This document shows positions 6,282-46,257 of a DNA stretch of 50,724 nucleotides, piece by piece. A model generated the notes under the pieces. The model did not search any database, was not told the origin of the DNA, and saw only the letters and a list, made by a program, of their open reading frames with translations. Source of the stretch: Deltaproteobacteria bacterium (lineage in GTDB: Bacteria > Desulfobacterota > Binatia > HRBIN30); the NCBI GenBank assembly GCA_017860575.1, contig JAGDMS010000007.1, forward strand, positions 1 through 50,724, read 5' to 3'. The position numbers and the translations under genes were made by a program. Within the stretch, counting starts at the first letter, position 1, and each line of letters opens with the position of its first letter.

Positions 6282-6719
6282 ATGACGTTCCGTGGCAGGA
6301 ACATTTCGTGTCTTTTTGCCCTTGTCGTTGTCGCCGGGTGCTCTTCAACCAAGATCTCCAGCCAGCCGGTTGTCTCCGGCGAGCTGCCTCGGTCCAACAA
6401 TATCTTTGCGTACGATTTCATCAGCACGCCTGCTGATCTCCCGCCTGACTCCTCGATGGTGGGCCAGTTTGCTGAACACAGCACGCCACAAACCCCCGAC
6501 GAAATCGCGGCGGAACGTCAGCTGGGTGCGGAAATGGCGGCGCAGCTGGTGTCGGCGATTCAGGGTATGGGCCTGCCCGCATCGTGGGCGACCAATCAGA
6601 CGATGCTGTCTATCCACGACATTGTGCTTCGCGGGTATCTCTTGTCGATCAAAAACGGGAGCGAAGTACTCTGGGACAGAAGTTGGGCAACGTATTTCGC
6701 GACACCCCGCTCACCCTGA
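6282..6719 (+). CDS. Lipoprotein (possibly DUF4410-like); its 3' end is supplied by an inserted repeat
   Basis: MTFRGRNISCLFALVVVAGCSS carries a lipobox, with AGGAAG upstream. The last ~11 codons and the TGA (6686-6719) lie inside the left inverted-repeat arm of the GIY-YIG unit. Confidence 0.6.
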   Translation: MTFRGRNISCLFALVVVAGCSSTKISSQPVVSGELPRSNNIFAYDFISTPADLPPDSSMVGQFAEHSTPQTPDEIAAERQLGAEMAAQLVSAIQGMGLPASWATNQTMLSIHDIVLRGYLLSIKNGSEVLWDRSWATYFATPRSP

Positions 6720-7115
6720 GCCCGTCGAAGGGTGAGCGCGCACTGGCAGCGGCACCACCATCTGGAGTAGTCTCCGACGGTGGTGTTCTGGAGCTACATA
6801 TTGCAGTGCGCTGATGCGTCCGACTACAGTGCACACACCGACGATCTTGAAGATCGTATCCAGCAACATCAGTCCGGGGCTCTGGGCCGATACCCGAAGA
6901 GTCGCCGTCCCGTTCGCTTGGTCGATTCGCAGGATTTCCCCACCCGCGACGAGGCGTTTGCGGCGGAGCGGCAGGTCAAGGGATGGAGCCGGAAGCAGCA
7001 GGCAGCTCTCAGCAACGGCGCCTGGGAAGAACTCCGGCGGCTGTCTCGCAATAGCCAGCGGGCGTCCGCTCACCCTTCGACAAGCTCAGGGTGAGCGGGG
7101 TTGAGATACGTCGCC
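6686..7115 (+). mobile_element. GIY-YIG nuclease gene bracketed by ~50-bp inverted hairpin-containing arms (REPtron/MITE-parent-like unit)
   Basis: Left arm 6686-6738: GGCAACGTATTTCGCGACACCCCGCTCACCCTGAGCCCGTCGAAGGGTGAGCG. The reverse complement of right arm 7067-7115 is GGCGACGTATCTCAACCCCGCTCACCCTGAGCTTGTCGAAGGGTGAGCG. Each arm holds a 9-bp-stem hairpin (CGCTCACCC/GGGTGAGCG). Similarity of the right flank to the 36.7-kb copy continues to about 7139. Confidence 0.7.
6780..7094 (+). CDS. Small stand-alone GIY-YIG (URI-domain) nuclease family protein
   Basis: (M)VFWSYILQCADASDYSAHTDDLEDRIQQHQSG...RRPVRLV...RDEAFAAERQVKGWSRKQQ follows the GIY..YIG..R..H..E..K pattern of ~100-aa GIY-YIG proteins. 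The C-terminal ...RASAHPSTSSG and the stop codon are encoded by the right hairpin arm. Confidence 0.8.
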   Translation: MVFWSYILQCADASDYSAHTDDLEDRIQQHQSGALGRYPKSRRPVRLVDSQDFPTRDEAFAAERQVKGWSRKQQAALSNGAWEELRRLSRNSQRASAHPSTSSG

Positions 7116-7302
7116 ATAATTATGCCAACGTATACTTAGAAACACGGGAAGAATTCGTCGGTGGCTGCAGGCCTCCGTGCCTGCAGCGTAGGTGTTGAGA
7201 TAGCCGCTTCATTCCCTGGCGGCGCAGAAGACGCGTCATCACCATCAGCTTGCGCCAGCCAGTGGATCTAGCTCACAATGCTTCGCACCAATGAAGGAGG
7301 GC

Positions 7303-7932
7303 ATGATGCACAAGACAACGAATACGGTAGGGGGTGGTCAGGTTGGCGCGGTTGCGTTCCGGAAAGCTGGGCTTATCACAATCGGGTTGCTGGTCGGTGC
7401 GATGGGGTGCGCCACCATGTCACAATCGGGGAGCGGCGGTGCACCGGTGGAAAAGTATTCCGCCACGGTCCAAGTGGGATCGGGAGCGGGCCAGGGGAAT
7501 GTCCCGGTGATCATCACCATTCGGTCGTACACCAGCGATGCGGAAGCGGCGCAACTGGTGCAGACCCTGCGCACGCAGGGGCCCGACGGCCTGGTGGATG
7601 TCATGCGTAAGCTCGACGGCAAGGGCAATTTCGCGCCAGCCATGGCGATGAGCCAGGAACTGAAGGTGATCCGCGCCGTCAAGACGCCGAACGGACGGCA
7701 GTTGCGCATGCTGCTCGACCGGCCGATCGGGTTTCTCGAGGGCAGGATCGGCGCGCGGACGCTGACCTACCAGGTTGGGATCATCGTCATCAACCTGGAT
7801 GCGAACGGCAAGGGCGATGGGCAGATGATCGTTGCCGCCCGGCCCTCGTTCGACAAGAACAACGAGCTGGTGATCGAGAAGTTCGATTTCGACCCAGTCC
7901 TTGTGAAGGATGTCGCCCCGCTGGCGAACTGA
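7303..7932 (+). CDS. Lipoprotein, unknown function
   Basis: Track ORF 7291-7932. AAGGAGG precedes the ATG at 7303. The lipobox is LLVGAMGCA. I recognise no family motifs. Confidence 0.7.
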   Translation: MMHKTTNTVGGGQVGAVAFRKAGLITIGLLVGAMGCATMSQSGSGGAPVEKYSATVQVGSGAGQGNVPVIITIRSYTSDAEAAQLVQTLRTQGPDGLVDVMRKLDGKGNFAPAMAMSQELKVIRAVKTPNGRQLRMLLDRPIGFLEGRIGARTLTYQVGIIVINLDANGKGDGQMIVAARPSFDKNNELVIEKFDFDPVLVKDVAPLAN

Positions 7933-28961: not shown

Positions 28962-29047
28962 CCTGTCATGCCCGCGAAAGCGGGCATCCATGGGCAAGGA
29001 ACGGTGCCCCGGTCCAACGATGGATTCCCCTTTCGCGGGCATGACAA
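28962..29047. mobile_element. MITE-like palindromic element of a second hairpin-repeat family
   Basis: Left arm: CCTGTCATGCCCGCGAAAGCGGGCATCCATGG. Reverse complement of right arm: TTGTCATGCCCGCGAAAGGGGAATCCATCG. A 24-bp spacer separates them. Each arm has an ATGCCCGC-GAAA-GCGGGCAT type hairpin. A partial extra copy (CCTGTCATGC) lies at about 28945-28954. Confidence 0.6.
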
Positions 29048-29991: not shown

Positions 29992-30134
29992 CTGTCACCT
30001 CCCGTTGATCGCGTGCGTGCCCTGCGCTGCCAGCAACCGCGCATACCGTCTAACATGCCGGCGCCGGCGCCAGCCACCCCCCGTCTTCGAAATCCTCTGC
30101 CGCCATGCTAACCGTAACCTCAGGGAGAATCACT

Positions 30135-31838
30135 ATGGACAAAATGCTGCGCGTAAACATGTCGGAGCTGACGGTTCGGGAAGAGCCGTTTCCGCAGGAG
30201 TGGACCTTTCTCGGCGGCCGGGCGCTGTCGGCGAGGATCCTGTTGAAAGAGGTCGATGCCAAGTGTGACCCCCTTGGGGCCGAGAACAAGCTCATTTTCG
30301 CACCCGGTGTCCTCTCCGGATCCATCGCACCGACCTCCGGCCGCATGAGCGTCGGAGCGAAAAGTCCACTGACCGCGGGGATCAAGGAAGCGAATTCCGG
30401 CGGGCAGGCCGGGCAGAAGCTGATGCGGCTTGGGTATCGCGCGCTCCTCGTCGAGGGCAAGGCCAAGGACCCGGCGAAGCGTTACCTGCTGGCGCTCAAA
30501 TCGAGTGGGGTCGAGCTGCGCGAGTGTCCCGAGCTCAAAGGCTTGCGGACCTATGCGTGTTCGGAACGGCTTGCCGACTGCTACTCCGGGCGCGCTGCCT
30601 TTGTGATGTGCGGCTCAGCCGGTGAACTCGGTCTGCATGGGGCCAGCATCGCCTTCACCGATGAGGGCAAGCGGCATCCGTCACGGCACGCGGCCCGCGG
30701 TGGGCTGGGTGCGGTGATGGGCTCGAAGGGGTTGAAAGCGGTGGTTGTCGACGACGAGGGCACGCGCGCGCGCCAGGCAGCGGACGCGGCCGGCTTCCGC
30801 GCCTTCGTCACGCAGTATAGCAAGGACTATAAAGCCGGTCCGCAGTTCCTGCAGTACGGTACGGCGGTCAATGTCAATCTCGCCAACATGATGAGCACGT
30901 TCCCGACGCGCAACCGCCGCGAGATGCAGTTCGAGGGGGCGGCCTCGCTCGACGGCAGCAACATCCTGCAGAACTACCTGGTGCGTGGCGGCTCCCAGCA
31001 CGGCTGCATGAGCGGTTGCATCGTGCAGTGCTCGAACACCGTCAATGACGCCGAGGGCAAGTATGTGACGTCGGCGTTGGAGTTCGAGACCGTTGCCTTG
31101 TGCGGCTCGAATTGCGCCATCGCGGATCTGGACAAAGTCGCCAGGATTGACCGCCTGTGCGACGAGCTGGGTCTCGACACCATCGAAACCGGCGGCGCCA
31201 TCGGGCTGGCGATGGAATGCGGCGCGTTGCCGTTCGGCGACGCCGACGGCGTCATCGCGTTGTTGGAGAAGGTCGACAAAGGAGATGCGTTGGCGGAGGC
31301 GATCGGACATGGCGTGGTGGCGGTGGCCAAGCGTTTCAACACCGACCGGGTTCCCGCCGTTCGCGGGCAAGGTCTGCCGGCGTGGGAACCACGCACGCTC
31401 AACGCCACGGGCGTCACCTACGCCAGCAGCGCCATGGGCGGCGATCACACGGCGGGTCTGATCCTCGCCCCGGCGGACGACAACGCGCGCGCGTCGCAGG
31501 AGGCGCAGTTGATCAATGCGCTGTGCGATTCCAGCGGCTTCTGCCAGTTCCAGGGCCCGGGGATCGACGACATGCGCATTCTATACAACGCCCTGTACGG
31601 CGGTTCGCTGACGTTCGAGGACATGGTCGACATTGGCTGGCAGTGCCTGGAGGACGAGTGGGAGTTCAACCGCCGCGCCGGCTTCACCCTGGACGACTAT
31701 GATCTGCCGGAGTGGATGCGCACCGAAGCGGTGCCGTCGAACGGCGCGGTCTTCGCCGTACCCAAGGAGGAGATCCAGCGCGTCTTCCAGCGCATGCCGA
31801 TCTCGGATGAGCTGCGGATGAAGAAAGCCATCGGGTGA
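30135..31838 (+). CDS. aor: Aldehyde:ferredoxin oxidoreductase family (tungstopterin enzyme), paralog 1
   Basis: Track ORF 30105-31838; GGGAGA precedes the ATG at 30135. LRVNMSEL...GGRALSARILL...DPLGAENKLIFAPGVLSG...SGRMSVGAKSPLTAGIKEANSGG, and the 4Fe-4S Cys cluster region GSQHGCMSGCIVQCSN. Confidence 0.9.
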   Translation: MDKMLRVNMSELTVREEPFPQEWTFLGGRALSARILLKEVDAKCDPLGAENKLIFAPGVLSGSIAPTSGRMSVGAKSPLTAGIKEANSGGQAGQKLMRLGYRALLVEGKAKDPAKRYLLALKSSGVELRECPELKGLRTYACSERLADCYSGRAAFVMCGSAGELGLHGASIAFTDEGKRHPSRHAARGGLGAVMGSKGLKAVVVDDEGTRARQAADAAGFRAFVTQYSKDYKAGPQFLQYGTAVNVNLANMMSTFPTRNRREMQFEGAASLDGSNILQNYLVRGGSQHGCMSGCIVQCSNTVNDAEGKYVTSALEFETVALCGSNCAIADLDKVARIDRLCDELGLDTIETGGAIGLAMECGALPFGDADGVIALLEKVDKGDALAEAIGHGVVAVAKRFNTDRVPAVRGQGLPAWEPRTLNATGVTYASSAMGGDHTAGLILAPADDNARASQEAQLINALCDSSGFCQFQGPGIDDMRILYNALYGGSLTFEDMVDIGWQCLEDEWEFNRRAGFTLDDYDLPEWMRTEAVPSNGAVFAVPKEEIQRVFQRMPISDELRMKKAIG

Positions 31839-31886: not shown

Positions 31887-34413
31887 GTCAGGGGATGCTG
31901 CCGGGGCCGCCGAGGTAGGCCACCCCCACCGCCTGCCGCCCCGGCACGCTCCACGTATCGTACGGGCTCGGCGCCCCGCTCGGGTCGTCCACGACCGCCC
32001 ACGTATCGCCCGCGTCCGCCGACCGATACAGCACCTCCGCCCAGCGGGTGCCAGCCACTCGCCGTCTTCTCCTGGTACGTGTGCTCCACCGTCAGCAGCA
32101 CCTCATTCTGCGGACTGATCGCCAGCGCAACCGGCCAATCCCCATGCGAGTGCCCATCCGCCGTCCATTGATCGACGTCGGGCCGTACCATCGCCCAACT
32201 CTGCCCCTGATCCCGCGACCGCCACACCGACCCGGGGCCACACGGCGTGCCCGCCAGAATGACACTGCCCGCCCCCTCCACCTGATTCCACGCCATCGTG
32301 GTGACCCAACAGGCGAACACGTCCGCCCCGCTCAGCGCTGTCCACGTCGTGCCGCGATCGGTCGACACTTGCAGAGCAGCCCAGCACTGGTGCCGGACAG
32401 CAGCACCACCGGCTCCCCTGACCCCTTGCGGCCCACGTACAATAGGCCCGGCCCCCACCCCCAGGCCCCCGCGAAGCCGTCCACACTGATGACGACGGTC
32501 TGTCCCGCTGCCAGCACCAGTGTCACCTGCGATTGCAGCCCCAAGCCGGTGGAGTCGTCGTCGCAGGCCAACTCCGCGCCGCTGCACGTGGCGGTACGTA
32601 CGGATACGATCGTATCAAACGCCGAGCCGCTCGTATCGATCCGATACGTCCCGTCTACCGGCGCGGTCCACTGATAGCTGGCATCCGGGGCCTGGCTGCC
32701 GCCGTCGCCGCAGGAGGCATCGGCGACATAGTTGGTCCCGCCGGTGGTGGTGCCCGACACGGTCAGCGGCACGGTGCTGCCCAGGTCGTCCTGCGGGCAT
32801 CCCGTGGTACCGGTGGCCGCCGGGGTCGCGGTTGCCGTCGGAGTGTCAGCCAGCGGTGGTGTCAACGTAGGGGTCGGCGTCCGCGTGGCTGTGGGTGTCG
32901 GCGTCATGCTAGCGGTTTTCGTCGGCGTCGGCGTATCGGTCGCTGTGGGGATGGCGGTCGGGGTGAGGGTCCCGGTTGCCGTGTTTGTCGGTGTCGGTGT
33001 CGGCGTATCGGTGGGCGTGGCCGTCGGGGTCAGGGTTGGCGTTGCGGTGCCCGTGGGGGTGGGGGAGTCGGCGTCGGGCTCGCAGTCGCTGTGGTGGTGG
33101 CCGTGGGGCTCCACGTGGGGGTCCGGGTGGGCGTCGCGGTCGGCGTGGCGGTGCGGGTGGGTGTCGCCGTCGCCGTCCACGTCGGTGTCCGCGTTGGCGT
33201 TGCGGTCGGCGTGGGCGTTGGGGTGCGCGTGGCCGTGGGCGTCTCGGTGGGCACCCCGGCCAGCGTATAATTCACCTGGAGCGTTGGCGCGTTTGGCGGC
33301 AGCGACCCGTCGAAACTCCGCAGGTACACATAGTTGTCGGACGTCGGTGCACCCCCGTCCACGGCCAGTCGCAGATACGTGGTGCCGGTGGTGCTGATAG
33401 TGCCCACGTTCGACAGTGCCATCGCGTTGGAGCCAATCACCAGGGAGCTGATCGGGACCGAGAACGCCGTTGCGATTGGCGTTGCGCCCACGTAATCCTC
33501 GCAGCCCACCGACGCCCCCCAGTTGTACCAATCCCCTTGCCAGTTGCGATTCCAGGGGGTCGTGCGGGCCGTGACCGTGGCGCTAAACGACGCGCTGGTC
33601 ACGGTGGCCGCGCTGGTCAAGCTCGACGTGTTCCAGCGGACAAGCCCGTACTCGGTAAAATCCGCCCCGGGCCACACATAGCTGCGCTGACTATAGAGAA
33701 ACAGCTCGGTGGAACTCGCGTTGACACAGGGCGGGGGATACCCGTAGGAGCCGCTTCCCCTCACCGTGCCGTCGTCGGCACTCGCCGCCACGGAAAAGGT
33801 CGTGGTGGGGTCGATCACGTAGGGAAACGCGCTGGCCGGCAGGACGGAGTCGTCGTAAGTAAACTGGAGTTGGCCGCCCGCCCCCAATTGCCATGCTCCT
33901 GCCTTCTCGGTCACCTGGTCGCCGCGGTGGATGGTCGCCCGCGGCACGGTGAGCGTCCCGGCCACGGCATTGCCCTGGTCATCGATAGTGAATTCAGCTT
34001 GGTTGCCCACGCGCTGATAGGCAAACATATAGGTCTGCAGGCCGCGCGCGGCGGCCACCGTCGCTGTCTGCTTCACCCCGCGCGGCGTGGTAGTGCAACG
34101 GGCCGGCCGCGATGACCGCGGTGAAGCTGCCGTCGGCGCGGCGGAAGTGTTTCGCATTGAGGGCGCGCTTTCCGACGACTTCCACGGCGCTCGCCGGCAA
34201 CCGGAACGCGGTCGGATCGCTGAGCGTTGGCCCGGACACTGGTGTGGACGCTGCCAGCGTCGGTGTGGGTGCGGGTGTGCTCGGTGCCAGGGCCACCTGG
34301 GCCGACACTGATCGCACATTCACGGGGCCGGCGAGCATGGAAACGGTCACCGCAAGCAAGACGAAGACGACTTGACCATACCGCGCGATCCTGCTCGTGC
34401 GTGCTCCCACCAT
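31887..34413 (-). pseudogene. Decayed secreted multidomain gene (signal peptide / lectin-like domain / Pro-Thr linker / pre-peptidase-C-terminal-like domain / BNR Asp-box repeats) with at least 4 frame changes
   Basis: AAGGAG precedes the ATG at 34413, followed by a signal peptide (VVFVLLAVTVSMLAGPVNVRSVSA). The coding signal then hops between track ORFs 33994-34413, 33030-34319, 32332-33531 and 31856-32587, plus a fifth unlisted frame ending at TGA 31889-31887. Asp boxes present: [24 protein letters not shown]. Confidence 0.7.
32803..33260 (-). repeat. Low-complexity Pro/Thr-rich linker-coding repeats
   Basis: (T/A)PT(x) units in two frames (…[22 protein letters not shown]… and …[24 protein letters not shown]…). 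They create long spurious ORFs on both strands. Confidence 0.8.
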
Positions 34414-34535: not shown

Positions 34536-34703
34536 TACGGAGGCGCCGGGCGTCGCACTCGCCTACCGTGGCTACCGCAGCCTGGCAGGGGGCGGCCGAG
34601 TCGGAGAGGCCGTCGCCGTCATTGTCTGAACCGTTGCTCCCAACTTGGTTTCCGAGCCATCGCAATTGCACGGATCGGTCGACAACCGCACTCTTCCCAA
34701 GCG

Positions 34704-34737
34704 CCGTGGTGCCATGCTAAGGGCGGAGGCACCACGG
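34704..34737 (+). promoter_or_regulatory. 10-bp perfect stem hairpin abutting the AOR2 Shine-Dalgarno
   Basis: CCGTGGTGCC, a 14-nt loop (ATGCTAAGGGCGGA), then GGCACCACGG. The 3' arm overlaps the first two nt of GGAGG (34736-34740), 6 nt before the ATG at 34747. Confidence 0.5.
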
Positions 34738-34746
34738 AGGTTGCAT

Positions 34747-36508
34747 ATGGACAAGATCCTGCGCGTGAACATGACGGACCTATCGGTGAAGGAAGAACCG
34801 TACCCGGAGGAGTGGAGACTCCTCGGCGGGCGGGCGCTGACGGCCAAGATCCTGCTGAAAGAGGTCGACCCGGAATGCGATCCGCTGGGGCCGGACAACA
34901 AGGTGATCTTTGCGCCCGGTGCCCTGTCCGGGTCGGTGGTCCCGACCTCCGGACGGATGAGCGTGGGCGCCAAGAGCCCGCTGACCGACGGGATCAAGGA
35001 AGCCAATTCCGGCGGGCAGGCGGGGCAGAAGCTGATCCGGCTCGGCTACCGCGCGCTCATCGTTGAAGGGAAGTGCAAGGACCCGGAAAAACGCCACCTG
35101 ATCTTCATCAACAAGAACGGGGTCGAGATCCGCGAGTGCCCCGAACTCAAGGGCCTGCGCACGTATCCCGCGTCCGAAAAGCTGGGTGCCCAGTTCTCCA
35201 AACGAGCGGCGTTCATGTTGTGCGGTCCAGCGGGGGAGCGTGGGTTTCAGGGCGCCAGCGTCGCGTTCACGGATGAGGGACCACGTCACCCCTCCCGCCA
35301 CGCGGCCCGCGGCGGTCTGGGTGCCGCCATGGGGGCCAAGGGATTGAAGGCTGTCGTGGTCGACGACGAGGGTGGGTGCCGCCATGGGGGCCAAGGGATT
35401 GAAGGCTGTCGTGGTCGACGACGAGGGAACGCAGCCGCGTCCGGGGAGGACGGGGGCTGATTTCAAGGCACTCACCGTGCAATTTACGAAAGAATTCAAG
35501 GCCGGCCCCAATTATATGGAGTTTGGAACATCCACCAGCGTGCCGATCGCCAACATGATGAGTTCGTTCCCGACGCGCAACCGCCACGAGATGCAGTTCG
35601 AGGCCGCCGATGCGCTGAACGGCACGCACATCATCGAGAACTACGCGACGCGCGGTGGTTCCCAGCACGGCTGCATGACGGGCTGCATCGTGAAGTGCTC
35701 GAACACCGTCAATGACGCGCAAGGGAAGTACGTCACCTCGGCGCTGGAGTTTGAGACGGTTGCACTGTGCGGCTCCAACCTCTGTATCGGCGATCTCGAT
35801 CAGGTGGCGCAGTTGGATCGCCTGTGCGACGACCTGGGCCTTGATACGATCGAGACCGGCGGCGCGCTCGGGCTGGCCATGGAGTGCGGGGCGCTGGCCT
35901 TTGGCGACGGGGCGGCGGCGATTGCGCTGCTCGACCGGGCCGACAAAGGTGACGAACTGGCTGAGACCATTGCCCGTGGCGTCGACGCCGTCGCGCAACG
36001 GTTTCACGTGACGGATCGCGTACCGTCGATTCGCCGGCAAGGCATTCCCGCATGGGAGCCGCGCACGCTGCCGGGGCTCGGCGTGACCTACGCCACCAGC
36101 GCCATGGGCGCCGATCACACCGCCGGCCATGCCATCATGCCCAGCGAGGATCCCGTGCAGGCGTCCCAGGAACTCCAAATTCTTATGGCCCTCACCGATT
36201 CCAGCGGTTTCTGTTATTTCCAGATGGCCACCATCGAGCAGATGCGTGAACTCTACAACGCGTTCTTCGACAAGCAGCTGACGTTTGACGATATGGTGAA
36301 CGTCGGCTGGCAGTGCATGCAGGACGAGTGGGAATTCAATCGCCGTGCCGGCTACGGTCCAGAGGACTGCGATGTGCCCGAATGGTTGCGCACCGAGCTG
36401 GTGCCGTCGACCGGGACCGCCTTCTCCATATCCAAGGAAGATATGGCGCGAATGTTCACGTTGATGCCCATCTCCGACAACATGCGCAAGCGCAAGATGT
36501 ACGAGTAG
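34747..36508 (+). pseudogene. aor: Aldehyde:ferredoxin oxidoreductase paralog 2, disrupted by a 55-bp tandem duplication
   Basis: Track ORFs 34645-35460 and 35372-36508. GGAGG precedes the ATG at 34747. By eye it is roughly 80% nt-identical to paralog 1 over the first 350 nt. Deleting one 55-bp copy restores ...GGLGAAMGAKGLKAVVVDDEGTQPRPG..., colinear with paralog 1. Confidence 0.85.
35318..35427 (+). repeat. Perfect 2 x 55-bp tandem duplication
   Basis: 35318-35372 and 35373-35427 are both TGGGTGCCGCCATGGGGGCCAAGGGATTGAAGGCTGTCGTGGTCGACGACGAGGG, checked base by base. Confidence 0.95.
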
Positions 36509-36528
36509 CGTGGCGTGGAAACAAACAC

Positions 36529-36735
36529 AGCAGCGTGCTTCAGCCCCGCTCACTCTGAGCTTGTCGAAGGGTGAGCGGACGCCCGCTAGAGTCCACGCGC
36601 CAGCTGCCGGAGCTCCTCCAGTCGCCCGCAATGGGGGCTTCCATATTGTGGGGCCACTACCAGCGCGCGCTCATCCTTCGACGAGCTCAGGATGAGCGGA
36701 AAAGTAGGGTGGCCAACTGCGTTGCCATACGTATG
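36529..36735 (-). mobile_element. Non-autonomous (internally deleted) derivative of the GIY-YIG/hairpin unit
   Basis: Hairpin modules at 36547-36577 and 36668-36698 in inverted orientation. Sequence next to each module matches the inner flanks of the 6686-7115 unit (GACGCCCGCT equals the reverse complement of AGCGGGCGTC; CGCGCTGGTAGTGGCCCCACAATATGG vs CGCACTGGCAGCGGCACCACCATCTGG, 21/27). A remnant of the nuclease 3' end (LEELRQLARGL vs WEELRRLSRNS) is retained, but the ORF body is missing. Confidence 0.65.
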
Positions 36736-36746
36736 CCTTGCCATAC

Positions 36747-39428
36747 TTACTTTGGGCTCGGGCCCTGCGTGACTTGCACCAGATCGCGCGGACGCAGCCA
36801 CTTGGCAAATGCGGCCTGCACCTCCTGAGGGCGCAGCTGCACGTACCGTTCGGCGGCGCGTGTCGGCTCGTCCAACGGCAGGTCCAGCACCGCGCGGGAG
36901 AGCAGTCCCGACGCGATGCTGTCCGTGCTCGCCTCCGACAGCGGAATCTCCCGCAACAACACCGCCTGCGCCTGGCGCAGCTCCTCGTCGCTGACCGGCG
37001 ACGTTTGCATGGTCTTCAGATTGCGCACGATGAGGGCACGGGCCTTCGAGACGTTCGGCGGATCGCAGGCGTAGGTGACCATGTAGAGACCGCGGGTCTG
37101 GTCGAGACTGAAGGCCGAGCCCACGTTGTAGACGAGGCCGGCATCCTTGCGCAGGTCGCGATAGAGACGGGTCGCGTAAAACGCGCCTCCCAAAACGCGA
37201 TTGCCCAGCTCGAGCGCGTAATAGTCGGGGTGAAAGCGATTGAGACCCAGGGTTTCGGCCAGCGTGACTTTGTCCTGGACCCGGCTCTTGTCCGGAACGG
37301 CGACCGTTGATGGCTTGTTCAACGGTACCGGTGGCAGCAGGGTGTTGGGCTTACGGCCGCGCGCCTGCCACTGTCCGAAGTGCTGCGCGAGCACGGCTTG
37401 CGCCCGTTCCGGCGTGACATTGCCGATGATGACGATGGTGGTTAGATCGGGCCGGAACAGCTTGTCGTAGTAGCCGCGGACATCCTTGAGCCGGAGTGCG
37501 GAAATCGTTGCCGGCGTTGCCTGGCGCTGCGTGGGGTCACGCTTCGGAAACAGCGCGGTGTTCAGTGCCCGTCCCGCGAGATACCCCGGGCTCTTCAGTT
37601 TTCCGACGAGCGAGGCCGCGAATTGCCGGCGGATCACCTTGAACGCCGGTTCGGGCAGGGCAGGGCGCAGCATGTTGTCCGCCAACAGTGCGACGCCACG
37701 TTCGAACTGTTCGCTCAACACTTGCAGAGAGAAATCGGTGCCCGCGGCGGCGCTGGCCCCGATGTCGTCCAGCGCCTTCTGGAAGGCGAGCCGATCGAGC
37801 GACGTGGTGCCGTAGGAGAACAGTTGTGCGAGCACGTCACCGACGCCCTCTTTGCCCGGTGGCACCTGCAGCGCGCCGTTGTGCCGGATATGGCCGTAGA
37901 CGCTCACGGTGTTGCTGACCGACGCCGGTTGGACGATGAGTTGGATGCCGTTCGCAAGCGTGGTGACGGTAGGCTGTACGCTGGACTGCGGCACCGAAAG
38001 TCGTCCCAATGCGGCCTGCGCCCAGTCGGGCAGCGTCACACCATTGGTCTGCTGGGGCGCGAGGGATTCCGCGCCTCCGAACCCCTTCGGTGAGGTGGGT
38101 TTGCCCGAGGGCTGCGGCGTCAGGATGGCGACGACGGCGTGGTCCAGATCGAGGTACTTGCGTGCGACCCGGTTAACGTCGTCGACGGTAACGCGCTCGA
38201 TGGCCTGCAGTTCCTCGTCGGGTGATTCGCGCCCTTCCACGGCGACCGCTTGCGACCACGCGCGGGCCAATCCCGCTACGGAGTTCTTCTGCTGTTCGGC
38301 TTCGACACGGGCGCGCCGTTTGGATGCCTCAACCAAGTCCGCGGGCACACCGTCCGCCACCTCTGCCGCAAGGACCCGCCGGATCTCCTGCCCCAGTGCT
38401 GAACTGTCGGCCCCCTGCGGGAACCCCGCGATCCCGTAGCCCATCCCCGTGTGCGGAAAGGCATTGGCGGCGAAGCCGGCATAGAGCGCCTTTCCGTCAG
38501 GAACCAGGCCGTAGAGCCGGGCGCGCTGACTGCTGAGGACATCGGCCAACACCTCAATTGCGGCGTAGTCCGGATCGTCGCTCCCCGGCAGACGGAACGC
38601 GACGACCACCATGCCGGTAGCCTGGTTGGTGTCCAGGCGCAGTGTCTCTGGCTGGACAGGCTGCAGGCGGATCTCCGGTCGTGCTGGGATCGGCTTGGCG
38701 GGGATGTCGCCGAACAGGGCGCGGACCCGCGTCAGCGTTGCTTCCGGCTCCACGTTGCCGGCGATGACCAGAATCGCGTTGTTGGGTGCGTACCAGGTGT
38801 CGTGGAACTGCTTGAGCGTGGCGGCGGTCGTTTCGGCGAACGACGGACGCGTTCCCAGGGCATCGTGCGCGTACGGCGTTCCCCGGAACAGGACCTCGAG
38901 CAGCTTGCTGTAGAAGATGTACTGCGGATTGGACAGGTTCTGGGCCACCTCCTGTTCGATCGCGCCACGCTCCTTGCTCCACAGCTGCTCGTCGGCGAGG
39001 ATGCCGCGCATGCGGATGGACTCGATGCGCAGCGCGATGTCGAGATCGTCCGCCGGCACGGTGAAGAAGTATCGCGTGACGGTTTGCTGGGTATCGGCGT
39101 TGAACTTTCCGCCGATCGCGGCGCTCAGGTTCGCCAACTGGTCCCCCGACAGGCCGGGGCTGCCGCGGAACATCATGTGCTCCTCGGCATGCGCCGTGCC
39201 CGGGAACCCCTCCGGTGATTCGTTCGAACCGACGCGGTAGTTGACGACCGTGGCAGCTACCGGCGCAAGCGTGTCACGCACGATGATCACCCGCAGGCCA
39301 TTGTCGAGGGTGGCGCGTAGGACGCCGTTGCTACTGAGTGCGGCGGCGGTTCCCGTGCCGACCGCGCACAGGAGGAAAGCAAGGATGGCCAGGCGGATTC
39401 GAGAGAGACGTATCGACGCAAACGACAT
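36747..39428 (-). CDS. M16 (pitrilysin/insulinase) family zinc peptidase, double-module, secreted
   Basis: 893 aa with a signal peptide. Inverted zinc motif HAEEHMMFRGS (HxxEH) in the first module, and a second inactive-type M16 module. Confidence 0.9.
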   Translation of the reverse strand: MSFASIRLSRIRLAILAFLLCAVGTGTAAALSSNGVLRATLDNGLRVIIVRDTLAPVAATVVNYRVGSNESPEGFPGTAHAEEHMMFRGSPGLSGDQLANLSAAIGGKFNADTQQTVTRYFFTVPADDLDIALRIESIRMRGILADEQLWSKERGAIEQEVAQNLSNPQYIFYSKLLEVLFRGTPYAHDALGTRPSFAETTAATLKQFHDTWYAPNNAILVIAGNVEPEATLTRVRALFGDIPAKPIPARPEIRLQPVQPETLRLDTNQATGMVVVAFRLPGSDDPDYAAIEVLADVLSSQRARLYGLVPDGKALYAGFAANAFPHTGMGYGIAGFPQGADSSALGQEIRRVLAAEVADGVPADLVEASKRRARVEAEQQKNSVAGLARAWSQAVAVEGRESPDEELQAIERVTVDDVNRVARKYLDLDHAVVAILTPQPSGKPTSPKGFGGAESLAPQQTNGVTLPDWAQAALGRLSVPQSSVQPTVTTLANGIQLIVQPASVSNTVSVYGHIRHNGALQVPPGKEGVGDVLAQLFSYGTTSLDRLAFQKALDDIGASAAAGTDFSLQVLSEQFERGVALLADNMLRPALPEPAFKVIRRQFAASLVGKLKSPGYLAGRALNTALFPKRDPTQRQATPATISALRLKDVRGYYDKLFRPDLTTIVIIGNVTPERAQAVLAQHFGQWQARGRKPNTLLPPVPLNKPSTVAVPDKSRVQDKVTLAETLGLNRFHPDYYALELGNRVLGGAFYATRLYRDLRKDAGLVYNVGSAFSLDQTRGLYMVTYACDPPNVSKARALIVRNLKTMQTSPVSDEELRQAQAVLLREIPLSEASTDSIASGLLSRAVLDLPLDEPTRAAERYVQLRPQEVQAAFAKWLRPRDLVQVTQGPSPK

Positions 39429-46138: not shown

Positions 46139-46257
46139 GCTGAAAAACCCCACCCCATGCTTCGACAGGCTCAGCATGAGCGGATCCCCTCCCCGATTTC
46201 ATTATCCTTTTCCGCTCACCCTGAGCTTGTCGAAGGGTGTTCAGACCCTTTTTCAGC
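46139..46257. mobile_element. MITE-like pair of hairpin modules with its own outer inverted repeat
   Basis: GCTGAAAAA...CATGCTTCGACAGGCTCAGCATGAGCGG, a 28-bp spacer, then CCGCTCACCCTGAGCTTGTCGAAGGGTG...TTTTTCAGC. The core module is the same as at 6.7 and 36.6 kb, but the pair has opposite polarity. Confidence 0.6.

Follow-up and report, generated by a model that had tools for sequence, protein, structure and literature searches.

The closest described counterparts of the genetic unit analysed here are the Ssn nucleases. SsnA of Neisseria is a 94-amino-acid (aa), single-domain GIY-YIG protein (CDD cd10448, GIY-YIG_unchar_3), the gene of which is flanked by NTS hairpin repeats present in hundreds of copies (Chenal et al., Nat Commun 2025, PMC11893778). 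The protein binds one NTS strand as single-stranded DNA and cleaves it site-specifically a few bases upstream, but does not do so with double-stranded DNA or RNA; SRM repeats lie near 71% of ssnA homologues and on both sides of the gene in 42%, and the authors liken NTS-ssnA-NTS to insertion sequences and to REP/RAYT systems (PMC11893778). The subject of this report is a unit of 476 bp in contig JAGDMS010000007.1 of a Deltaproteobacteria bacterium (Binatia, HRBIN30; assembly GCA_017860575.1), of which a stretch of 50,724 nucleotides (nt), hereafter the window, was analysed. The unit contains a gene for a small GIY-YIG nuclease, bracketed by two inverted copies of a hairpin module. In our opinion, it is best regarded as a cassette that joins a nuclease to its cognate hairpin repeat, a reading to which we give a probability of roughly 0.6. 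What is new here is the nuclease family and the hairpin, the concept of a nuclease between hairpins having been known since 2025 (PMC11893778). The concept put forward in the sequence-only reading of this DNA has accordingly been described already, and experimentally examined, in a related family. No earlier account of this particular clade-hairpin pair was found in a literature search that left out most subscription journals, so that an earlier description is possible.

Repetitive extragenic palindrome (REP) systems with RAYT enzymes, termed REPtrons (Nunvar 2010; Ton-Hoang 2012, PMC3333891; Bertels and Rainey), resemble the unit as well. In both, a gene lies between inverted copies of a dispersed palindromic repeat, the repeats are often paired (REPIN- or BIME-like), the gene copy number is low, and positions are partly conserved by vertical descent. 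The REPtron-like layout proposed from the letters of this locus holds more widely, the module bracketing the gene in inverted orientation in most of the 80 loci described below. The enzymes differ: RAYT is an IS200/IS605-like HUH Y1 transposase, whereas the unit encodes, as judged by Pfam, a GIY-YIG protein only. The repeats differ too, the module having no GTAG-type 5' tag and its conserved part being the loop.

Within the unit, the nuclease open reading frame (ORF; 6780..7094, forward strand) starts with GTG and encodes 104 aa of UPF0213/Slx1-like type, according to Pfam, a sequence search of the PDB, AlphaFold and Foldseek. It is preceded by a hairpin module in "A" orientation (6708..6738, forward strand) and a spacer (6739..6779, forward strand) with a possible ribosome-binding site, GGAG, at 6764-6767; a sigma-70-like promoter was not found on the nuclease strand. 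The second module, in "B" orientation, i.e., the reverse complement of A, occupies 7067..7097 as read on the forward strand. The exact pattern CGCTCACCC-N13-GGGTGAGCG is found at 6708-6738 and at 7067-7097, so that both modules have the stem CGCTCACCC/GGGTGAGCG, with the loop TGAGCCCGTCGAA in A and TTCGACAAGCTCA in B. The right hairpin encodes the end of the nuclease, namely its last eight codons (AHPSTSSG) and the stop TGA (7092-7094), which falls in the 3' stem of this hairpin. The sequence-only reading had described inverted arms of about 50 bp with 9-bp-stem hairpins and a nuclease ORF ending in the right arm, and it was correct on both counts: the arms are 94% complementary over 35 nt (6704-6738 and 7067-7101), and a gapped match of about 53 nt joins 6685-6738 to the reverse complement of 7067-7115. 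When up to three mismatches are allowed, the window contains five occurrences of the pattern where 0.14 would be expected, and none of 100 shuffles reached five. The window holds six modules and one nuclease gene.

Relatives were collected by a scan of one genome per species, which gave at least 544 loci. The best 80 (L001-L080; L denotes loci or contigs of relatives, and P denotes protein sequences compared) were analysed, and they span alpha-, beta- and gamma-proteobacteria, Desulfobacterota-type lineages, Chloroflexota, Nitrospirota, Binatia and Zixibacteria. A module was counted as strict if it had the loop TGAG-N3-5-[CT]CGAA, or its complement, and a stem of at least 6 bp. In 38 of the 80 loci, a strict A module is found no more than 150 nt upstream of the gene, a count that is unbiased because the upstream module is outside the protein query. 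In 39, a strict B module coincides with the ORF end or follows it closely, a count partly favoured by the query protein, which includes the hairpin-encoded tail. The density of strict modules is 0.036 per kb in far flanks and 0.0014 per kb in shuffled sequence; since a stretch of 150 nt taken at random has a chance of 0.2% per locus of containing an A module, the binomial P is about 6e-82. The loop motif alone is present upstream in 66 loci, at the gene end in 66, at both places in 56 and at neither in three, and these three carry variant modules. The layout of the window also recurs in metagenome relatives (L083-L091) and in an annotated Sphingomonas record. The association of the gene with the hairpin is general across several phyla.

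The consensus of 70 aligned modules, about 35 nt long, reads CCGYTCRYSS-TGAGCYTGTCGAA-SSRYGARCGG. TGAG and CGAA in the loop show no variation among these modules, while 11 of the 12 stem pairs are altered on both sides. The covariation score of the stem is 0.40, compared with 0.20 in shuffles (none of 500 reached the observed value) and with 0.07-0.13 when partner columns are slid. Thus, column pair 10/28 is UA in 39 modules, CG in 23 and GC in six, column pair 11/27 is CG in 56 and GC in 12, and the inner stem pairs alternate between CC/GG, GG/CC and GC/GC. Modules chosen by the loop motif alone still pair in about 72% of stem cells. These patterns point to selection for pairing in the stem. 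In L057 and L088, an unusual stem surrounds the usual loop, and the odd stem is common to both arms of a unit; overall, stem identity is 0.78 within a unit and 0.65 between units (permutation p<1e-4). By this measure, the two arms of one unit co-evolve. On the loop-bearing strand of both arms, G.T pairs outnumber A.C pairs (128 vs 84). This modestly favours hairpin formation on the loop-bearing strand, which is one strand at the left end of the gene and the other at the right end.

The same data bear on an RNA role, according to which the upstream module would be a 5' untranslated structure and the downstream module a 3' stabiliser or terminator regulating the gene, the dispersed copies being unrelated REP-like RNA elements. 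REP elements can stabilise mRNA; moreover, the stems of the module covary and tolerate G.U-type pairs, and the distance from the upstream hairpin to the start codon is often 15-40 nt. Nevertheless, we regard this explanation as very improbable. The two hairpins are reverse complements, so that their loops differ in the mRNA, yet at the DNA level one identical loop sequence is present on opposite strands, which favours DNA over mRNA as the level of action. Furthermore, as judged by wobble bias, the downstream hairpin is better paired when read from the antisense strand, a terminator-like T-run is absent, no Rfam family matched (whole window at the gathering threshold; 6500-7400 at E up to 10), and SsnA, the relative that has been tested, does not bind RNA (PMC11893778).

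The earlier assignment of the ORF to the GIY-YIG nucleases is borne out by a match to PF01541 (E=2e-9; 38.1 bits vs a Pfam cut-off of 22.6 bits). The catalytic residues Y6, Y16, R26, H30 and E63, invariant in the family alignment (A1), are retained in the window protein. Its AlphaFold model (mean pLDDT 83.6) consists of strands E3-9, E15-20 and E46-53 and of helices, and Foldseek places the model nearest to UPF0213 proteins and then to Slx1 nucleases, which process branched DNA, all matches being GIY-YIG structures. By its motifs, its arginine and glutamate and its fold, the window nuclease belongs to the GIY-YIG superfamily. Within the superfamily, similarity to members in the PDB places the clade with UPF0213, the bacterial Slx1-like group (cd10456): profile A1 finds 1ZG2 at E=1.1e-22 and 1YWL at E=3.1e-18, and P0002, the clade sequence used for comparisons with SsnA and the PDB, alone finds BH0048 (1ZG2) at E=5.6e-18 and EF2693 (1YWL) at E=1.7e-12. 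UPF0213, which includes YhbQ, YazA, BH0048 and EF2693, is the closest family in sequence and fold and consists of minimal stand-alone GIY-YIG domains. Although structures of UPF0213/YhbQ-like proteins have been solved since 2005, we know of no member with an established function. It should be noted that yazA of Bacillus, a core member of UPF0213, lies in an operon, where it overlaps genes for tRNA and rRNA methyltransferases, and is not flanked by modules; the hairpin association is thus limited to a subclade. NCBIfam gave no match and PADLOC gave only a weak match of 15 bits, so that nothing ties the protein to a known defence system.

The clade shares much with the Ssn nucleases. Both are single-domain GIY-YIG proteins of about 94-104 aa, encoded between inverted hairpin repeats (20-50 nt long in Ssn systems) that are dispersed and far more numerous than the gene, and both layouts occur across many phyla. 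A gonococcal ssnA locus (L161), the product of which served as a proxy for SsnA of N. meningitidis, has the same layout, with eight SRM-pattern matches around the gene. Membership in Ssn has been defined by blastp E<1e-10 at a query cover of at least 75% to N. meningitidis SsnA in per-genome searches (PMC11893778). The proxy is 32% identical to P0002 over 75 of 93 residues (81% cover), with a pairwise E of 1e-11 and a proteome-scaled E of about 1e-7, which would miss the 1e-10 limit, the scaling being an estimate; compared with profile A1, it gives an hhalign probability of 97%. At the same time, SsnA matches the UPF0213 protein BH0048 only at E=0.14, in contrast to the strong match of P0002 given above, which argues for different subfamilies.

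The repeats are also dissimilar: in NTS/SRM, a palindrome with a short loop follows a 5' GTC tag that is conserved, whereas in the clade module the stem varies and the 13-nt loop is conserved. The SRM pattern HGTCWYN(0-2)YYVSBRHN(0-5)WNVSBRGN(0-2)RNCYNB, which recognises an NTS control and the gonococcal locus, has no match beside the gene in the window and detected none of the clade modules. Within 300 nt of the gene, it matches in two of the 80 loci; neither match is hairpin-like, and one lies inside the ORF. Canonical SRM pairs are nevertheless present in the same genomes, away from the clade gene, in L056, in L070 and in the window (28964-28991 and 29019-29046). The pair in the window, formed by TGTCATGCCCGCGAAAGCGGGCATCCAT and its near-complement, lies between riboflavin-synthase-like and hydrolase genes with no GIY-YIG gene nearby, and indicates that this genome carries two unrelated hairpin-repeat families; a true ssnA is probably encoded elsewhere in the genome. 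As a separate observation, the viral-classified contig L130 contains an exact Neisseria NTS (CGTCATTCCCGCGCACGCGGGAATCTAG) at 1827-1854 alongside a TGAGC-loop module. Judged by its sequences, the clade thus appears to be a nuclease-repeat pair distinct from Ssn, with a protein from another GIY-YIG family and a hairpin of another design. A broader proposition, which we advance tentatively and at somewhat less than even odds, is that the clade constitutes a second, UPF0213/Slx1-like GIY-YIG lineage with a hairpin of its own, read through the 13-nt loop and not through a tag, which exists in several phyla beside Ssn repeats without mixing with them.

At the E<=1e-3 level, the family profile matches 22,084 clusters (50%-identity representatives), and 7,021 at E<=1e-10. 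Hairpin-encoded peptides (e.g., LSLSKG, PELVEG, PSTSSG) are present in 59 of the 149 best family representatives retrieved, and several of the 149 are annotated as fusions with the products of downstream genes (SPOUT methyltransferase, JAB/MPN, TadA-like). Read-through of the hairpin accounts for two observations of Dunin-Horkawicz et al. 2006 (PMC1564403), the "TrmH fusion" and the "recent insertion in HsdR". The gene order nrdR - GIY-YIG - TrmJ-like RNA methyltransferase is kept in the sphingomonad loci L012, L042, L050, L057, L068, L070 and L160, an arrangement that accounts for the "GIY-YIG-TrmH fusion" reported in 2006.

In five pairs, among them paralogues from a single genome, the ratio of nonsynonymous to synonymous divergence (pN/pS) lies at 0.09-0.18, the synonymous divergence (pS) of within-genome paralogues being 0.42-0.78; a value of 1.27 for L013/L014 was discarded as an artefact of unequal ORF lengths. 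Low pN/pS together with high synonymous divergence indicates that the gene is maintained and that the copies are old. Genomes among the matches typically carry one or two genes. A relative was found in eight of 72,556 plasmid records, all of them large replicons, and none was confirmed on viral contigs.

Several modules depart from the simple form. One module may be nested in the loop of another, between TGAG and TCGAA, as in L031 and in the sphingomonad loci, where a small module sits in the loop of a larger one. In L025 (near 4843 and 7357) and L029 (near 5273), tandem 5' half-modules, each consisting of a stem arm, TGAGCC and a short spacer, lead to one complete module. Such arrays suggest repeated breakage or template switching within the loop; half-modules that break off after TGAGCC, together with nesting between TGAG and TCGAA, lead us to infer that the loop is a place of breakage and rejoining. 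The nested and half-modules further suggest that the loop may be both the cut site and a preferred insertion site, in which case the repeat would be truly mobile. Three other candidates were considered and rejected. A hammerhead-like ribozyme, considered for the nested modules, does not agree with the presence of only two stems and with the absence of an Rfam match; integron attC sites occur singly in a cassette, in contrast to the inverted pair of the unit; and repeats of a type III toxin-antitoxin system would form a tandem array directly before the gene, which the window does not have.

The left end of the unit coincides with a damaged gene. ORF 6282-6719 (forward strand) begins as a DUF4410 lipoprotein gene, homologues of which encode 232-240 aa. 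When full-length P0122 and P0124 were compared with the window by tblastn, only their residues 1-128 and 1-127, respectively, aligned, to 6282-6665, and the remaining approximately 107 codons were found nowhere in the window. Thus, the truncated gene (6282..6665, codons 1-128 of about 235) is shortened by 45% and cut exactly at the left end of the unit, from where the frame reads through foreign sequence to TGA 6717-6719 inside the left hairpin. The stop in the left hairpin had been recognised from the sequence alone, but the number of foreign codons added is 17 and not 11. Of the loci carrying intact relatives, L106 and L107 are syntenic with the window, having MlaD/PqiA genes on one side; on the other side, L106 shares with the window a 192-aa gene and a sulfatase gene, while L107 ends sooner. 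Both contain an intact DUF4410 gene and further small genes but neither the unit nor the module, and about 1.2 kb of L106 is replaced by positions 6666 to about 7320 of the window. Loci encoding P0125 are not syntenic with the window. A clean empty site was not found: L106 and L107, though syntenic, are too distant, and the original site has been removed by deletion. The proposed insertion into the lipoprotein gene accordingly stands insofar as the unit lies at a truncated gene, but not as a clean event, 45% of the gene and about 1.2 kb of the syntenic relative being missing. In agreement with the earlier reading, we did not find a target-site duplication. Sequence comparison indicates that the unit sits at a rearrangement junction, at which the 3' half of the DUF4410 gene and about 1 kb more have been removed.

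The boundaries of the unit, previously placed at 6686-7139, are revised to 6663-7138 in this lineage, with the ends TAAGTA...TACTTA. Outside the modules, the unit has a left terminal tail (6663..6707, forward strand; [T/G]AAGTAC...GGCAACGTAT...) and a right terminal tail (7098..7138, forward strand), which contains a second small hairpin (7106-7133), seen as an inverted repeat and on folding, and ends in TACTTA; the fold of the right tail on the minus strand has -21.8 kcal/mol (z = -5.6). The right end follows from comparison with a gene-less copy at 36.5 kb, likeness to which ends after TACTTA (7133-7138; 36744-36749). For the left end, contig L109 is informative. This contig is 97.8% identical to the window over 6664-7689, but its 76-nt left flank is unrelated: it is an SDR-like coding fragment ("AYAAAKSAVNSVT") that ends in TAA at the junction and was not found in the window at any meaningful score. 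The switch of flanks puts the left boundary at 6663/6664. The junction in L109 could be a true rearrangement, a second copy or a chimera between two unit copies; in each case, either the unit exists in at least two full-length copies or breakage took place at its end. In the same-species contigs L081, L082, L087 and L108, the junction is the same as that of the window. Position 6663 is G in the window and T in L081, L087 and L109, a population polymorphism that determines whether the truncated lipoprotein ORF ends in TAA at the junction or continues for 17 codons within the unit. The outer tail motif TAAGTA[Y]...GGCRACGYA occurs solely beside modules, at three termini, and in three cases the terminal TAA is the stop codon of an abutting gene or, in other contigs, gene fragment.

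Copies within the species differ in patches. Between the window and L109, 19 of 23 differences lie within 6756-6941 (about 10% divergence) and only two in the next 748 nt; L110 has the same 19 differences, and L108 has a separate patch at 6996-7028. Single-base deletions in L087, which resemble sequencing errors, were left out. The 6756-6941 patch looks like gene conversion from a diverged copy. In the window protein, four conserved residues encoded in this patch are replaced (Y15D, G18A, T39P, Y49D), while L109 and L110 keep the consensus, and pN/pS between the window and L109 is 0.55. These features suggest that the window copy may be partly degenerate or weakened, though every catalytic residue remains.

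Modules without a nuclease gene occur at two further places in the window. The gene-less copy at 36.5 kb (36509..36749, reverse strand) has modules at 36547-36577 and 36668-36698, between which nuclease remnants occupy 36578-36667; its segment 36540-36619 is 83% complementary to 7025-7104, i.e., in the opposite orientation. It retains the first 30 nt or so of the 5' spacer, the start codon and about the last 14 nuclease codons (the C-terminal remnant reads "IAGDW", then, after a 1-nt loss that shifts the frame, "EELRQLARGL*"), having lost about 230 nt between the spacer/start and the nuclease end. The derivative fills the entire gap between two convergent stops (36506-36508 and 36747-36749), and its TACTTA (36744-36749) provides the TAA stop of an M16-type peptidase gene (36747..39428, reverse strand). 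The second place, which is absent from the sequence-only reading, is a pair of modules with no gene between them (46154..46243, no strand assigned), B-type at 46154-46183 and degenerate A-type at 46212-46243. Its loop starts are 61 nt apart and its fold has -23.9 kcal/mol (z = -6.1); B-A pairs of equal 61-nt spacing recur in the unrelated contigs L135 and L136. In 49 viral-classified, module-bearing contigs (404 kb), there is one homologue of the gene only, away from the modules, and 38 kb of control loci from related lineages (L102-L107) contain no modules. Modules are dispersed in the genome as single copies, pairs and arrays, and far outnumber the genes.

Bacterial MITEs (small transposable elements with inverted repeats) and Rickettsia palindromic elements are known as short repeats and in-frame palindromic elements, respectively, and the modules recall both. 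Thus, the 36.5-kb copy is short, gene-less and located between convergent genes, has inverted ends and derives from the full unit, all of which are MITE-like traits; a target-site duplication was not identified for it, and one of its ends is poorly defined. Like Rickettsia palindromic elements, modules are often read through into annotated proteins. Unlike MITEs, they have no target-site duplication that we could find, and their parent element has no known transposase. The 36.5-kb copy, which had been taken to argue that the unit moves or is copied, is a genuine internal deletion of the unit, whereas recent movement is not borne out, as paralogues differ at 42-78% of synonymous sites and the position in sphingomonads is conserved.

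A rival reading is that of an autonomous transposon, in which the 476-bp unit, with a hairpin in each of its terminal inverted repeats (TAAGTA...TACTTA), would move as a whole with the GIY-YIG protein as its transposase, and gene-less pairs would be non-autonomous derivatives mobilised in trans. A full copy and a deletion derivative do share inverted ends of about 50 nt, one contig (L109) has a different left flank, the unit is missing at the syntenic loci L106 and L107, and the congeneric genomes L013 and L014 carry the gene at non-syntenic places, without a flank in common. The nesting of modules between TGAG and TCGAA would fit loop-targeted insertion, and an HsdR gene has been described into which a GIY-YIG domain was "very recently inserted" (Dunin-Horkawicz 2006, PMC1564403). 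We nevertheless consider this explanation unlikely, since neither a target-site duplication nor a clean filled/empty pair was found, and since the within-genome copies are old and under purifying selection, unlike active insertion sequences. The GIY-YIG domain, to our knowledge, cuts DNA and has no known strand-transfer activity. Copy number is low, at one or two genes in a typical genome; the gene is rare on plasmids and was not detected on viral contigs; and with L083 and L084 only the hairpin-gene-hairpin core is conserved, the outer tails being lineage-specific. With respect to position, both flanks are shared by 30 of 3,160 locus pairs, and six sphingomonad loci, with the unit just upstream of a TrmJ-like gene, belong to one group. 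Unit positions are only partly syntenic, other clade genes are flanked by the module, and orthologues of the lipoprotein, about 235 aa long, carry no repeat; none of these three results speaks against the unit proposed by the sequence-only reading. A nuclease with its cognate repeat fits the evidence better than a transposase does.

The gene-less pairs and the conversion-like patches between copies also bring to mind a homing-type selfish gene, the nuclease of which would cut gene-less pairs, with repair from a gene-bearing copy and the hairpins as homology arms. GIY-YIG homing endonucleases are well known (PMC1564403), gene-less A/B pairs exist, and the arms of one unit evolve together. However, homing enzymes of the I-TevI type combine a catalytic domain with separate DNA-binding modules and reside in introns or phages, while the clade protein is a single domain of 104 aa without such modules, encoded in the chromosome between genes. 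Moreover, the homology arms would be only about 35 nt long, gene copy number is low despite many module pairs, and the 36.5-kb pair is a deletion product of a full unit and not an unoccupied target. Taken together, these points make homing a quite improbable account of the unit.

For the cassette of a nuclease and its cognate repeat, the following mechanism may be proposed by analogy with Ssn/NTS and in view of the neighbours of the fold. The protein would bind the hairpin in single-stranded DNA, on the strand carrying the TGAGC...GTCGAA loop; the loop bases next to the stem would be recognised, and the cut would be made in or near the hairpin. Cuts at dispersed copies could lead to recombination, deletions and gene conversion, by which the repeat would be kept or spread, while the nuclease gene would remain joined to the sites that it serves. 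Local breakage and recombination would fit the truncated gene, the change of flanks at the unit end and the conversion patches. On this analogy, the clade protein is probably a hairpin-directed nuclease of single-stranded DNA, its action on this particular hairpin, its substrate and the location of the cut all being inferred.

Several considerations weigh against this interpretation. Protein and hairpin are connected through co-location and co-evolution, and the modest strand signal of G.T over A.C pairs was counted in mutually dependent sequences. The clade is distant from SsnA and its hairpin differs in design, so that the analogy may fail in detail. Some loci have long been conserved in position, and their hairpins could be retained for a local role. 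In the window itself, the nuclease, with its four replaced residues and a pN/pS of 0.55, may be inactive. Finally, the alternative left flank comes from one short-read contig of 1.1 kb and could be a chimera between unit copies.

Two observations elsewhere in the window concern other genes. A perfect 55-nt tandem duplication (35318-35427) splits the second of two aldehyde:ferredoxin-oxidoreductase-like paralogues into ORFs 34645..35460 and 35372..36508, while the first (30105..31838) is intact; the split paralogue is either a frameshift pseudogene or an assembly artefact. At 32831-33267, a long run of GTCGGCGTN-type repeats with a 12-nt period contains 17 overlapping copies of a 63-nt register and is probably a repetitive coding region.

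The significance of these findings is, in our view, threefold. First, a subclade tied to a defined DNA hairpin offers a testable function for UPF0213 proteins, namely that of a site- and structure-specific nuclease of single-stranded DNA. If this is true, the Ssn/NTS type of arrangement is not confined to one protein family or to one repeat design; the combination of a small nuclease with a genomic hairpin repeat would represent a recurrent, modular strategy, and the clade would offer new specificities of single-stranded DNA cleavage. Second, the module accounts for unusual protein ends and fusions that run into the thousands, among them the peptides LSLSKG, PELVEG, PSTSSG, FDKLR and LRQAQ and the "GIY-YIG-methyltransferase fusions", and the unit marks a source of local rearrangement, of which the truncated lipoprotein gene is an example. 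Third, the published SRM search pattern would miss the clade module, and new hairpin-nuclease pairs of this kind would extend the single-strand DNA toolbox that has been proposed for Ssn enzymes.

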